Positions 1 through 7,160 of a stretch of 64,000 bases of DNA are shown piece after piece. The stretch comes from Eledone cirrhosa (taxonomy: Eukaryota). Under the pieces are notes generated by a model that saw nothing but the letters and a program-made list of their open reading frames with translations, was not told where the DNA came from and searched no databases. Position numbers and translations under genes: made by a program. The stretch spans positions 360,530,001-360,594,000 of the forward strand of contig OZ024743.1 of assembly GCA_964016885.1 (NCBI GenBank), given 5' to 3'. Numbering within the stretch: position 1 is the stretch's first letter; every line of letters begins with the position of its first letter.

Positions 1-1443
1 GGCATTGTCTTTACCCCAAGCCATCCAACCCATCATTTGTGGACTACCCGATATATATTCAAAGTCTATTTCTGATTCGTATGTTATTGTTATCATGAAA
101 GATATTTTCGCAGGATTGTTTTGTGAATCTAGTATAGGAATAGAATCTAGCGCTGCTATTGGAGGTGGATTTGAAGGATTAATAGGAAATTGTGTTAAAT
201 GCGAACGTCCTGTGTTTTCTTCTTCTGCTGTTTTATCAACTGCTAATTCTTTAGACCATGTTCCGTCTTTTGTTTGTGCCCATTGACTTTTTAGAGCTCC
301 TGAATAAGTGTTAATTTCGCACGGTAAACCATTAGTTTGTAGTAACCCCTTAAGTTAAACCAACTAGGTGTTCTATTTACCCATGTGTACTGAGCTGTTT
401 CTCCTGCATATATGAATGTACAATTCCCAGTATTCATGTATGATACGATTTCTTCTGCTGGTATTTCTTGTTCTGTTGGTGTAGCTGCTTTTGTATCTTG
501 TCATAACCACCAGTCTTTACGAATTAATCTGTTTGTTGTAACGTTTACCAATTTGCCTTCATCTCTTGTCTGCGGTATATTATTTGTCCAGTTGTTGTTA
601 AGATGTTTTATGTCATACGTAGCATTAGGAAATAATGCATATTTTGTGTCTACGTAATGCGTCGTCCAAGGTCTAGTGTTGACTGTAGTGTTAGTAGTTG
701 TAGTGTTTTGTAAAGTTCCTAATTCGTCTGTTAACGGTACTATGTTTGATATTTTGTACCCTATCGATTTAACCCGAAAGTTGCTTGCTGGTGTTAAATA
801 TGTTTCTAATTCTGCCATTGTCATACTAGCTTTTAAATCTGTGTATGGTATTAATGCAGCTCTATGTACTATTTTTAATTGAATATATTCGTTGTCGTGT
901 TTTCTGTAGAAAGCTTTGTCAATAGGATGAACGAAACAGTTAATGTAATGTACGAATGTTCTTGAACATTCTTTTGGTTACTATCGGATATATAACTCCT
1001 GTTGAAGGTGGCTGATCTCCTGTAGCCATGGAAGCTGCACCTCCTGGTGCTGGCCCAACATGATGATCCCCCATGTTTTGAGATTCGTTTATTCCGCTAT
1101 CTTCTGATGTAACTGCGTCAATCAAATCTTGATCTGAAATGTCGCAAGTATCTTCTTTATTTTTTGTCGATTGTTCTTGTTCGATTCTTCTTTTTTTAGG
1201 AAAGACAGGAGGCATTAGTATGTTTTTTGCCGTAATTATATTCCTCACTAAGAACGACGATACCCCACTGATTTCTTTACTACACTCTATTAATTTGTTA
1301 TCTGCGTCTTGTGTTGATATATCTTGTGTATAATAATCTAAATCGTATTGTCTGCAGCAGTTATCTAATTCGTTAATAGGTTTCTTTAGAAAGTTATTAG
1401 TGTAAGGCCCACAGTAATTATAAAATGGTAAATGTAGTGGCAT
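1..1443 (-). pseudogene. Endogenous parvovirus/densovirus-like capsid (VP1/VP) gene, disrupted; runs off the left edge of the window
   Basis: N-terminus LPFYNYCGPYT...PINELDNCCRQYDLDYY matches the parvoviral VP1u PLA2 motif (YxGP...D...HDxxY, here YD). Capsid-like sequence continues across a frameshift (~965-985), an in-frame TGA (501-503) and a frameshift (~350): LIPYTDLKASMTMAEL, AGETAQYTW, PSNPPPIA...ISFMITITYESEIDF. Confidence 0.85.
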
Positions 1444-1621
1444 TACTTACCGCTAATTCGTTCAACATTTCGCTATCTCTTGTTTTTAAGTCTTCGTAAT
1501 TCATTGTTGGTTTTCTGTTCCAGTGGAGTATCGTCGTTCTTTTTTGCTCGGATTCTTCTGCCTTTGTGATAGATTTTTCCGCGCAATTGTTAAGTTTTTT
1601 TGTTTTTTTGCAACGGGTCAT
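1418..1621 (-). CDS. Small 67-aa ORF between the hairpin and VP, overlapping the VP start; possible viral accessory ORF or first exon
   Basis: ATG-initiated ORF downstream of a CCAAT box (~1653) and an AT-rich TATA-like stretch. Contains the splice-donor consensus G|GTAAGT at 1450-1445. No recognised homology. Confidence 0.3.
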   Translation of the reverse strand: MTRCKKTKKLNNCAEKSITKAEESEQKRTTILHWNRKPTMNYEDLKTRDSEMLNELAVSNATTFTIL

Positions 1622-1737
1622 TTATTCTGCCTATGTCAGCCGATTTTAATATCCAATCAGAATTAATCTTAGTCAGCAAAATCTTTCCCGCCGCTTAGTA
1701 ATGAATACCTCCTCGTAATTTGATAACCTGTCTGCGC

Positions 1738-1907
1738 TGTGCACTGCCCTTTTGGTAAGGGAGACAAGCCGGTCGGGAGGGAGGGGGAGGTAACATTACA
1801 CAGTTATAGCGTAAAGGCTCTTCACGTTTGCCTATCCGCTAAATACTTAGAATTCCTCCACCTCCCTCCCGACCGGCTTGTCTCCCTTACCAAAAGGGCA
1901 GTGCACA
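1738..1907. repeat. Long inverted repeat/hairpin, probable parvoviral terminal hairpin
   Basis: 1738-1790 and 1855-1907 are reverse complements (53 bp, 1 mismatch). The 64-nt loop has extra pairing (tagcg/cgcta, aggc/gcct). It is GC-rich against an AT-rich background and lies ~300 bp upstream of the VP start. Confidence 0.8.
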
Positions 1908-3559
1908 ATAAACAATTCTTGTTTATAGTTTCGTTTACTAAATAAAGATGAGGTCCTTCTAAAACACATATACACACATGTAAAGACATGTATAAACACG
2001 CTGACATACATACAGAGAAATGCTCGCATACATTGCTACCAATATATGGTGAGAGAAATATGTAATGAGAAGTAGACCACGATTATATACAAAACATATT
2101 CACTGTAACAACCACAAAAAATAACTTTGTTCCCGAAGGAGGATATGAGGATTCACATTTGCTCTGACTGCAGTTATTAAGCCAAGCGAAAGTTTTGTCA
2201 TATCCAACATACCTATTTGCAAGACAGACATTTAACAAGAGTCACAAATGATGAGGCATTCATGACGTCAGTTCTCTGTATTGTATCAAGTCATGAAATT
2301 TACTATTCCATCGTTCATATAACCAGATATACACGAAGTTAGAAATGATTTTAACAGAATAGGAATCTGATGCAGAAAAGCAATATAAACCATATATCGC
2401 ATATTTTATATCTTTCATTTTATCTTGAATGTATGTGTTGCTGTGAATGATTGTAAATAGATTTAGACTGAAATTCATTGATAGACTGTAAGGTAATTTT
2501 GAATGACATTCCACTTTCAATTAGATTTCTCGTGGATCATCATCGAAAGAAAATATATTTTAAGAGTAAAAGGGATTGAACACAAGCTGATGTGTTTATA
2601 GCTTCTTCACAAAATAATTATTCATTATATGTGAATTTCCAAAAAGCAAAACAAGGGCGCTATTATTTTCTTTTTGCTAAACTAAAATTGCATTAAACAG
2701 TTATAAACCCCTATTTGATAGCCGAAGGTGTCACTTTTTTGTAGACTGTTTTTTGCAGAATTGTTTTATATTTGATGTGTGAATAGGAAGTTAATATAAA
2801 AAGACATAGGATCGAACTTCATTCAACTCCACGGTATATAATTTGTTTGTACTGTATAATCAATCGCATGTCTTGAACATTTTGTAAAGTTTGTAAATGT
2901 TCGGAAATTTTCTTCTATTTCGAAAAATGTAATTTAAAGGACATTGAAAGAAAGATTAAGATAATCGTAGGGGAAATTTAGTCGCTATTTGTTCTAATTT
3001 CTTTAATCGAATTTATAAATAGTACATATGAGCAATCGTTAAATAATGAATATATGAGATTCCCCTTTCTCTCAACTTTCCCCTGTTTATCTTGCTTTGT
3101 TTCTTAGTCGTTTTAAACATTAATCATATGAAAATCGATTCAATGTTCAAAGCGAATGGTACACTGGCGATGATAGCGCCAGATGAAAATTACCACACCA
3201 CAAAATCCTCCTCTAGTTTCCCATTTAGAAACATTTAATCTGTAGCATGTGTCGAATGGAGATCATTTTGTAGATCTTCCAATTGATATCACTTTGCTTT
3301 TTAGCACATTTGGATATACTTCTAACACAACGTATATCATTATTTCATGTGTTGAAAAGAATAAACTCGAGAAAGTATAAATAGAGTTTCAATTAACATG
3401 TATTAAGTTTTGAGAGCACTCATGGATCAAAGCCTAGATTTTAGGCAAAAATTGTAGTCTAGACGAAAATATTTTCTTTTTCACCTTTATTTATTTTGTA
3501 GCATGTATAGCCACGCAAGCACATAGTTTCGAATATATGTACAGACAATGTTAGTTTCG

Positions 3560-4430
3560 ACAGTGTGGGCTGGTAACAGGGCGAAGCTACATGTGAGGTT
3601 CGGTGGCCTCAGTGTCCGATCTGAAACGGATACGCCACTGCCGGCCTACCACTGCACAATCACCACAAGTCGTAGCCTCATCAACGAAATCCTAAGAAAG
3701 ACGGTAGAACCTGACATGGTTCAAGAACTGGAGCTGGCTCTGGACGACTGGACCGGCGAAGATCTCTCCGTCCCGCTGTACACAAATGTCCAACATAACT
3801 GGAATGACATTAGGTGGATCGTGTTTGGCTCTCACAAACGCCACTTCTCCTGATTCCGTTCTGCTTCACAGTCAAAGAGCGCCACGTTGTTCGATGACGA
3901 GTGCACTCTCGTTGGATTGGCCCAATGCCTCTGCTTTCGCGTGCGTCAGCTCCACATATGCCACTGTGGAGCTGTCGTTGACATGGTCGACTTGAAACAC
4001 CTCTATCAGGCTGCCAGAATGCAGGCTGGTTTCCCGACCTGCCGCACTCAATGACATAATGTGAAGGAGACTAGACGCAGCCGGCTTCCCATCACAACTG
4101 GAGCAAGCAGGCCTCGAACGGGGAGACGACAAGCGCCTCGATGGAATCACCACAGGTAAATTTTTCATTTGAGACGCGACATGCTGTGATTGTTCTCCCC
4201 GCGAACTTTGTCACTTCGGCCTTAAACAATTGTACCACGGCCCGCAATGCAGAGTACAGGAAGGCAAACAAATACCGGGGCATGTCCAACCGTTTACTCC
4301 TTGCACCGGTCTCCGTTAAAAATTCAAGTTTTCTCGGCCCCCTTAAAACTGTCCTCCTCCGTCAAATTGGAACGACAGCAGTCCGTGCGGAGCGTAGCCA
4401 AAATGCAGCTCTGACGTAGGCGTGGAATCT
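3560..4430 (+). mobile_element. Degraded CRE-clade-like non-LTR retrotransposon 3' region (thumb, CCHC-like motif, restriction-like endonuclease)
   Basis: Read across frameshifts: LHVRFGGLSVRS (cf. LPxxxGGLGIR), HICHCGAVVD, AALNDI..RRLDAAGFPSQLEQAGLERGDDKRLDGIT (cf. RPDG), *DATC, ARNAEYRKANKY (ExxKxxKY), FLGP. Confidence 0.75.
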
Positions 4431-5949: not shown

Positions 5950-7160
5950 ATTGCAACAGAAAGGACTTCGAGGCAGTTGACCCAGAAAGATGTGTTTATC
6001 CATGTTTTGCCCATCCTTTACTTTCCATCAGATCTAACAGCAAGCCCAAGCTCCGCCAGCTCGAAAATCTCAATAGCAGACAAAATCTAATTAAGGTGCA
6101 TCCAGGCTCCCCCTGTTGAGGATCTGCTTTACCATTCCGAAATTTTTGTATAACTGTTATAGTCAGGCATCGCATCTTATATATATTGATGCCTGCGTCC
6201 GGCGTGGTAGAGAGGGGGATATTTAACGTTCATTTCGATGACACCGGATGGTAACACGTCACTTTAACCGTCACATAAAGTAATATCGGTCTCTTCTCTC
6301 CCGTTTCGTTGACATTGCCAGTATTACTTGAATCGATGCTCTTCTAACGTGCTCTAACTAACAGAGTCCTCGACAACACACCAAAACCTACTCTCATCAC
6401 GGAACCTGAGACAGTTTACTAGATCAAAAGTCAACCAAGCCTCCATTATATGGGTGTTCAATCGCCCCTTCACTCTGTGTACCTCCAGTCACCTTATGTA
6501 AATGGAATGCACTCCAGTGCCATAAGGCTTCACATTCTCTTGTCAGATGCATAAACAATACCATATGGCATGTTCCGCGATCCCAACCACATGGGTGCGG
6601 CTTGCTAAATGTCATATCCTCGCTATTAACCGGTACTCAGTTGGCCAGCGACTTTCTACGAAACAGCTTGCTACCGAAATACCGCTTGGTATCCATGGAG
6701 GATCTTTCAGCCTTCACCATCTATCATACCATATTCTTCTACGCCATGCCGCTCTCAAAAAATTAATTAAGCATGGCTTGGTCACCACTAGCTTCATTTT
6801 TGACCTCCAGCCATTAGGGTTGGTCCGACAGGGCAGTACAAGAACTGATATCATCACAATCCTCTCGTTCAATTCGTGGTTTACTCCCCTAATCTGTGGG
6901 ACAAATGTAGAAACATTTTCTCTCGCGGTGAACTGGTGCATTCCGGAAAACATTGCTCCACAAGCTGAGGATTGCAAACTGTTTCGATAGAATTAGCGGT
7001 GGATATATCTGGCAATCTTATTCCTAGAACCACTTACTTACGCACAGCTGTCAGTCAGGAGTTTGCCATCCGCTCAAATGCACTCTGCGAGTTAGAATGG
7101 CTATTTCAACTAACCACCGGGGTAACATTTTCTCCATTCTGTTGGATGGAGCCCTGAGGC
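5950..7160 (-). mobile_element. Possible highly decayed L1/Tx1-like LINE fragment
   Basis: Island of higher GC. The only clear motif is EHPYNGGL (cf. HPxxGGLG thumb motif) near 6440-6460. Confidence 0.25.

Follow-up and report, generated by a model that had tools for sequence, protein, structure and literature searches.

The window, a stretch of 64,000 nt from Eledone cirrhosa, belongs to a genome of 3.0 Gb and lies on a contig of 379 Mb. At its left edge we observed about half of a parvovirus-like element; the remainder lies to the left of the window and was read from the extended locus L011, in which a window position is the L011 position minus 8000. The element retains 3,932 nt (~3.9 kb) and is monosense, in the order hairpin, VP, NS1. 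The terminal hairpin on the VP side occupies 1738..1907 and is assigned to neither strand. The VP gene, encoding a PLA2 domain and then a jelly-roll capsid, starts on the minus strand at the ATG at 1443, fills positions 1..1443 and ends at L011 7902. The NS1 gene, with an HUH motif and an SF3 helicase, follows it on the same strand (L011 ~7864 to ~6200). A poly(A) signal and a small hairpin lie 3' of NS1, followed by a second terminal arm that is truncated (near L011 5976-6030). This arm comprises ~45 nt similar to the VP-side hairpin's outer arm; host DNA follows, and the two ends of the element are related but non-identical. The small hairpin is perfect, with flanking A and T runs, and sits between the NS poly(A) signal and the truncated arm (L011 ~6050-6100); it was also seen in L022 and L025. 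The first-pass annotation had predicted NS1 on the plus strand to the left, together with a second hairpin. NS1 was found on that side but on the minus strand, and of a second terminal hairpin we recovered the truncated arm.

Both genes of this copy are broken. Two frameshifts and an in-frame stop divide VP into four open pieces, and the PLA2 catalytic dyad is altered compared with the frame of another copy, L020. NS1 is interrupted by at least two frameshifts. Thus, the window copy can no longer make whole proteins.

The identity of the genes was examined using the uninterrupted frames of L020 as queries (VP, 522 aa; NS, 549 aa from the first Met). The first VP frame of the window copy matched Pfam PF08398 (Phospholip_A2_4) with an E value of 1.4e-12, in agreement with the earlier reading of a leftward VP with a PLA2-like motif. 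The motif region (window 1350-1420, minus strand, and other copies) has paired cysteines like secreted phospholipases, and its match to PF00068 was weak (E 0.0014, below cut-off). The best PDB sequence matches of VP were the capsids of PmMDV, SsChPV and 3N7X; 6WH3, the PmMDV capsid, was matched over ~57 residues with an E value of 5e-8 from the single sequence and 1e-11 from the profile. An AF2 model of the natural uninterrupted VP frame from 15 sequences reached a pLDDT of 58 and a pTM of 0.61, and folding of VP from a single sequence gave a pLDDT of 31 only. All PDB matches listed by Foldseek for the model were parvovirus capsids, led by 3N7X (E 3e-10) and 9NEK (E 1e-8). The capsid similarity on which the first-pass annotation depended is therefore present, both in sequence and in the model. 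For NS, the helicase family PF01057 (Parvo_NS1) was matched with E values of 1.2e-12 (frame of the window element) and 7e-16 (another copy), and AAV Rep with 4e-23. The HxH (HUH) motif, with the N-terminal definition found in the available text of PMC9896142, was seen by eye in the NS frames. No Rfam match was found on the element.

The two arms of the VP-side hairpin (1738-1790 and 1855-1907) are 53 nt each and 98% complementary, and the 64 nt between them form a branched end. Folded as DNA, the hairpin reached -79 kcal/mol (z = -18), and none of 200 shuffles was equally stable; the hairpin first noticed by eye at the VP end is thus confirmed. Its single stem mismatch is also present in other copies and is therefore considered a property of the viral hairpin, not decay. 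The hairpin sequence matches at least 19 places in the genome. VP or NS lies beside it in 14 of the 16 other loci fetched, and the remaining two have no viral gene nearby. At 9 loci its loop has one orientation and at 4 the opposite one (flip and flop), which is a known mark of rolling-hairpin replication. Accordingly, we regard the hairpin as a viral telomere, not as the high-copy host MITE that the earlier annotation had itself raised as a possibility; a MITE would be non-coding, high-copy, flanked by a target-site duplication and unlinked to viral genes, and this candidate was rejected. The claim of an integrated parvovirus with its telomere kept stands on these loci. The parent virus would have replicated by rolling hairpins. 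Flip and flop telomeres kept together with apparent replication-intermediate junctions make a rare telomere record, which belongs to a lineage without an isolated virus among the named matches.

Subsequently, the region between the hairpin and the VP start was compared among copies. An 18-codon open frame on the minus strand (1451..1504, ATG 1504-1502), predicted to be the first exon of NS1, ends at a splice donor, GTAAGT (1445..1450, minus strand), which has no second occurrence elsewhere in the 3.9 kb element. In 17 of 18 matches, 7 of which are near-identical copies, the donor precedes the VP ATG by 7-10 nt. Among 12 non-redundant copies, an ATG stands exactly 18 codons before the donor in 11, and a TATA box is found 85-105 nt upstream in 10, having been lost in the window copy. 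In pairwise, uncorrected comparisons the leader frame showed a pN/pS of 0.39 with 0 stops, and the other two frames 0.72 and 1.28 with 18 and 6 stops. At the far end of VP, the predicted acceptor (L011 7865, minus strand) lies 34 nt after the VP stop, giving a predicted intron of 1,586 nt. In 8 of 8 copies, a pyrimidine score placed a pyrimidine-rich CAG, in phase with NS1, 33-39 nt past the VP stop; such a CAG is also present in L033, L035 and L036, and NS-like residues begin right at the acceptor. A fixed overlap of 23 nt between the leader stop and the VP start was set aside as evidence because conserved PLA2 codons produce it.

Two relatives on metagenome contigs outside this genome, L029 and L030, were informative. 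In both, the donor and the best acceptor are in phase 2, and the phases therefore agree in two different classes (0/0 and 2/2). Moreover, the first Met of their NS frames (residues 110 and 127) comes after the HUH motif (residues 83 and 82); L029 starts too near the donor to show a leader ATG. The absence of a Met before the nuclease motif in these two, taken with the conserved leader, donor and in-phase acceptor, suggests that VP is nested in an intron of NS1, which we consider a strong probability on these conserved signals. An overlapping open frame was also seen to start near the acceptor in L029 (1398-2204) and L030 (1832-2476), a possible NS2 from the same splice.

The main competing explanation is that there are two transcription units, VP being expressed from the left promoter and NS1 from a promoter of its own inside VP and from its own Met, with the 18-codon frame acting as a regulatory upstream ORF. 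Such an arrangement would fit the window family in one respect: a conserved Met lies 6-7 codons after the acceptor, and NS1 could therefore start there without the leader. Left unspliced, the leader frame would also meet a stop 30-33 nt into the intron. Furthermore, a second family in this genome, family B (L039 and L043), is VP-first but lacks the leader exon and has no donor close to where VP begins; a TATA box precedes its VP ATG by ~33 nt, and NS has a Met of its own ~25 nt beyond the VP stop (L039 2912-5849; L043 1964-5407). Two units would not, on the other hand, account for NS frames that lack any Met ahead of their HUH motif, for the agreement of donor and acceptor phases in two classes, or for NS-like residues that start exactly at the acceptor, and we judge this explanation unlikely. 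In L045 the leader and the donor are present, and the acceptor, placed by eye in this decayed copy, is one base out of phase.

If VP is indeed nested within an NS1 intron, one promoter beside the hairpin would give one pre-mRNA. Splicing would join the 18-codon leader to the NS1 exon and remove the whole capsid gene, yielding NS1, and the RNA that retains the intron would be translated into the capsid protein. The early-late switch would then be intron retention. In genomes of this kind, gene callers overlook the leader exon and predict a truncated NS1; hence, deposited 'Parvoviridae sp.' entries may hide the same VP-first plan. On this reading the element is probably a decayed, nearly full-length integrated copy of a parvovirus with the capsid gene ahead of NS1 on one strand and likely inside its intron.

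We also found that the 5' UTR can pair with the VP coding sequence. One arm of a 20-bp helix lies in the 5' UTR (1521..1541, minus strand), and the other (1250..1270, minus strand) inside VP at the end of the PLA2 domain. The window copy served to define the helix. Tested in 15 copies, which are related to one another, it was better than every one of 200 shuffles in only 10. In an alignment of 13 copies, from which L027 and L045 were left out and in which L026 is misaligned, 87.7% of cells were paired and 8 of the 20 pairs had changed on both sides (2 of 500 shuffles). The covariation score was 0.271, which 0 of 500 shuffles equalled, and slid controls reached at most 0.094. G-U pairs put the helix on the sense strand. 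It was absent from L030, which is PLA2-less. The helix needs the intron and is therefore predicted to form only in unspliced RNA. An internal in-frame ATG (1213..1215, minus strand), followed by a basic stretch, is the first AUG after the second arm, at 30-34 nt, in 10 of 10 copies tested, and is a candidate start of a PLA2-less capsid protein. When formed, the helix would bring the 5' UTR next to the internal AUG, with everything between its arms looped out: the leader AUG and the donor, then the VP1 AUG and the region that encodes PLA2. It could possibly favour intron retention, direct ribosomes to the PLA2-less major capsid protein, or both; we put this forward tentatively. The conserved splice signals and the helix give the proposed switch a name and make it testable.

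The order of the genes was then examined across loci. Of the 24 loci that hold both genes, 22 have VP ahead of NS on one strand; some loci in this count overlap (L028/L042; L025/L043/L036), and the two exceptions, L017 and L026, are unlinked pieces. NS followed by VP was found solely between tandem elements on contig C12, and convergent VP and NS only as fold-back duplicates in L018, L019 and L028. The order spans three divergent families in the genome (the window family, family B and L045), whose NS proteins are only 25-32% identical. It also holds in both metagenome relatives, L029 and L030 (NS 27% identical), one of which ends in its own hairpin; PLA2 is absent from the VP frames of both. 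These results indicate, almost certainly, an integrated VP-first parvovirus. Readthrough of the VP stop codon into NS was rejected as a candidate, the frames matching in one subfamily but not in L025. It is highly improbable that integration or assembly produced this order artificially, by circular permutation or rearrangement of a normal NS-VP genome. Fold-back and head-to-head rearrangements do exist in L018, L019, L020 and L028. Permutation, in contrast, would leave a hairpin between the end of VP and the start of NS, and none is present in the gap of ~35 nt to the acceptor. The recurrence of the order in copies 65-75% identical and in two outside contigs largely refutes this explanation as well.

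NS on the left and VP on the right, or an ambisense arrangement, is taught as the plan shared by Parvoviridae and underlies the order of early and late expression. The former is the layout stated in the available parts of PMC11357303 (section 1.1.1), PMC12298888 and PMC6631224. A VP-first monosense plan in three families and two outside contigs breaks this shared plan and needs a different switch. The features of Parvoviridae that we tested, an NS1 with SF3 helicase, an HUH motif, a single jelly-roll capsid and terminal hairpins on a linear 4-6 kb genome, are all found here; the usual layout, which is a general trait and not an NS1-based classification criterion, is not. The element works like a parvovirus apart from its gene order, is placed in no genus, and is known here from integrated copies and contigs alone. 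The literature covered, outside which most subscription journals fall, contained no VP-first parvovirus and no octopus element, and a prior description is possible. Parvovirus-related sequences of molluscs have been reported in PMC5013282, in whose main text, as far as available, 'octopus' is absent. The accessible portions of PMC10267136, PMC12115719, PMC11945456 and PMC9616810 added nothing on gene order.

Penaeus monodon metallodensovirus (PmMDV; Metalloincertoparvovirus decapod1), whose capsid 6WH3 is the best PDB sequence match, presumably has NS first and VP second. According to the available text of PMC11357303, it infects a marine invertebrate and has a genome of ~4.4 kb with a unique organisation and up to eight products; it lacks PLA2 and has inverted terminal repeats of 416 nt, whereas our element has PLA2 and related, non-identical ends. 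A VP without PLA2, a trait of Metalloincertoparvovirus, is thus not shared, and no PmMDV NS1 was named among the 30 proteins looked up. The top matches of the VP model belong to Hamaparvovirinae (Penaeus stylirostris densovirus, 3N7X; Syngnathus scovelli chapparvovirus, 9NEK), which are monosense like the element. In the portions of PMC6631224 and PMC9896142 consulted, they have the order NS-NP-VP and no PLA2, unlike the VP-first, PLA2-bearing element. The large introns that chapparvoviruses use (PMC6631224, in part) serve the VP transcript, whereas in the element VP would be the part removed. The vertebrate genera Bocaparvovirus, Erythroparvovirus and Amdoparvovirus, which use a single promoter, derive NS and VP messages from one pre-mRNA (PMC12298888, available text), as proposed here. 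In those genera NS comes from the unspliced RNA, with the capsid gene on the right, and the logic of the element would be inverted.

The nearest named NS1 proteins (29-30%) are those of 'Parvoviridae sp.' from wild-bird cloacal samples (Dai et al. 2023), which also supplied the top BFVD matches of the VP model. The text and supplement of PMC9896142, in the parts available, describe these genomes as monosense or ambisense and organised like most parvoviruses, with no mention of a VP-first order. In the set of 30 proteins looked up, NS relatives with a name were four such bird-cloaca entries and one ant-associated chapparvovirus (29-33%), the chapparvovirus-like match being 33% identical over 146 residues. 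The sole named close relative of VP was an Octopus vulgaris 'capsid' (37%), which fits the mollusc link suggested at first pass. This protein, CAI9722213.1, and its neighbours lie on a 177 Mb sequence; it is matched over 99% of VP, has PLA2 and carries its label by automatic annotation only. Scans of a viral contig collection found no relative. A FastTree tree of the helicase retained 145 of 161 sequences over 199 columns, with weak deep support and no ICTV exemplar recognised. In it, the genome copies grouped with four unnamed proteins (0.99) within an unnamed clade of 22 (0.95). L029 and L030 did not group with the window family, the shared node (0.75) holding 94 sequences. Related NS and VP proteins were also seen on contigs of 0.1-1 Mb (the P0013/P0169 cluster, P0015 and P0196), likely endogenous elements of other hosts.

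The junctions with host DNA were examined using read contigs of one sample, which may be the assembly's own, so that the support is not independent. The depth over the element (5-12) was like that over the flank (5.9-14.8), and a 653-nt contig bridges the NS-side junction. On the hairpin side, contigs of 2.2-6.0 kb start at window 1878 and run into the host flank (1908..2100, unstranded). The continuity sought at this edge is therefore seen in part, since the contigs hold only 30 nt of hairpin, one base short of the bridging rule. No target-site duplication was seen by eye at the element ends. RAD-seq of three other samples gave too few reads on the element to judge presence or absence (15 each in X5 and X6), and no joint skipping the element was listed, which is no proof against an empty allele. 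It is extremely improbable that the locus is the end of an ambisense densovirus, a hairpin MITE that happens to adjoin viral sequence, or contamination in which a live virus became joined to host DNA: a PLA2-bearing VP read inward from a terminus, two hairpin loci of 16 without a viral gene and the dependence of the reads would agree with one or another of these, but NS1 on the VP strand refutes the first, viral genes at the other 14 loci refute the second, and a copy full of stops and frameshifts within a 379 Mb contig, with flank-like depth and a bridged NS-side junction, speaks against the third. In ambisense Densovirinae, NS and VP occupy opposite strands, a trait that the element lacks; it is thus no ambisense densovirus, contrary to the probable placement in the first-pass annotation.

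The window copy is 65-75% identical to most other copies, and 81% and 89% identical to two short fragments. Between two uninterrupted VP frames, most differences fall on the third codon position (0.18, 0.13 and 0.43 at positions one to three). Together, these differences point to separate integrations of evolving viruses; the parent virus would have entered the germ line many separate times. Taken together, we lean slightly towards a widespread, undescribed group of parvoviruses with a capsid gene nested in an NS1 intron, one promoter and intron retention, in whose PLA2-bearing branch the helix would set splicing or shunt ribosomes to the major capsid start, and which would have infected the host lineage repeatedly, until recently.

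Copies 99.7-99.9% identical to one another were found on four contigs (L018, L019, L020, L028 and L042, on C5, C14, C998 and C10), with head-to-head and fold-back junctions centred on hairpins. Replication intermediates of a single strain may have integrated very recently, or else the copies are artefacts of duplication or assembly. Tandem clusters of parvoviral elements of different families were observed at C12:9.07-9.09 Mb (L025, L043 and L036) and on C25 and C27; they look like EVE-rich or piRNA-type clusters. To the left of the element, L011 900-3600 holds a decayed region that is presumably a LINE-like reverse transcriptase, and a GC-rich stretch lies inside the window at 3527-4400. In addition, pieces of NS or VP have expanded into tandem repeats in L032 (1456-4380) and L035 (7237-8811).
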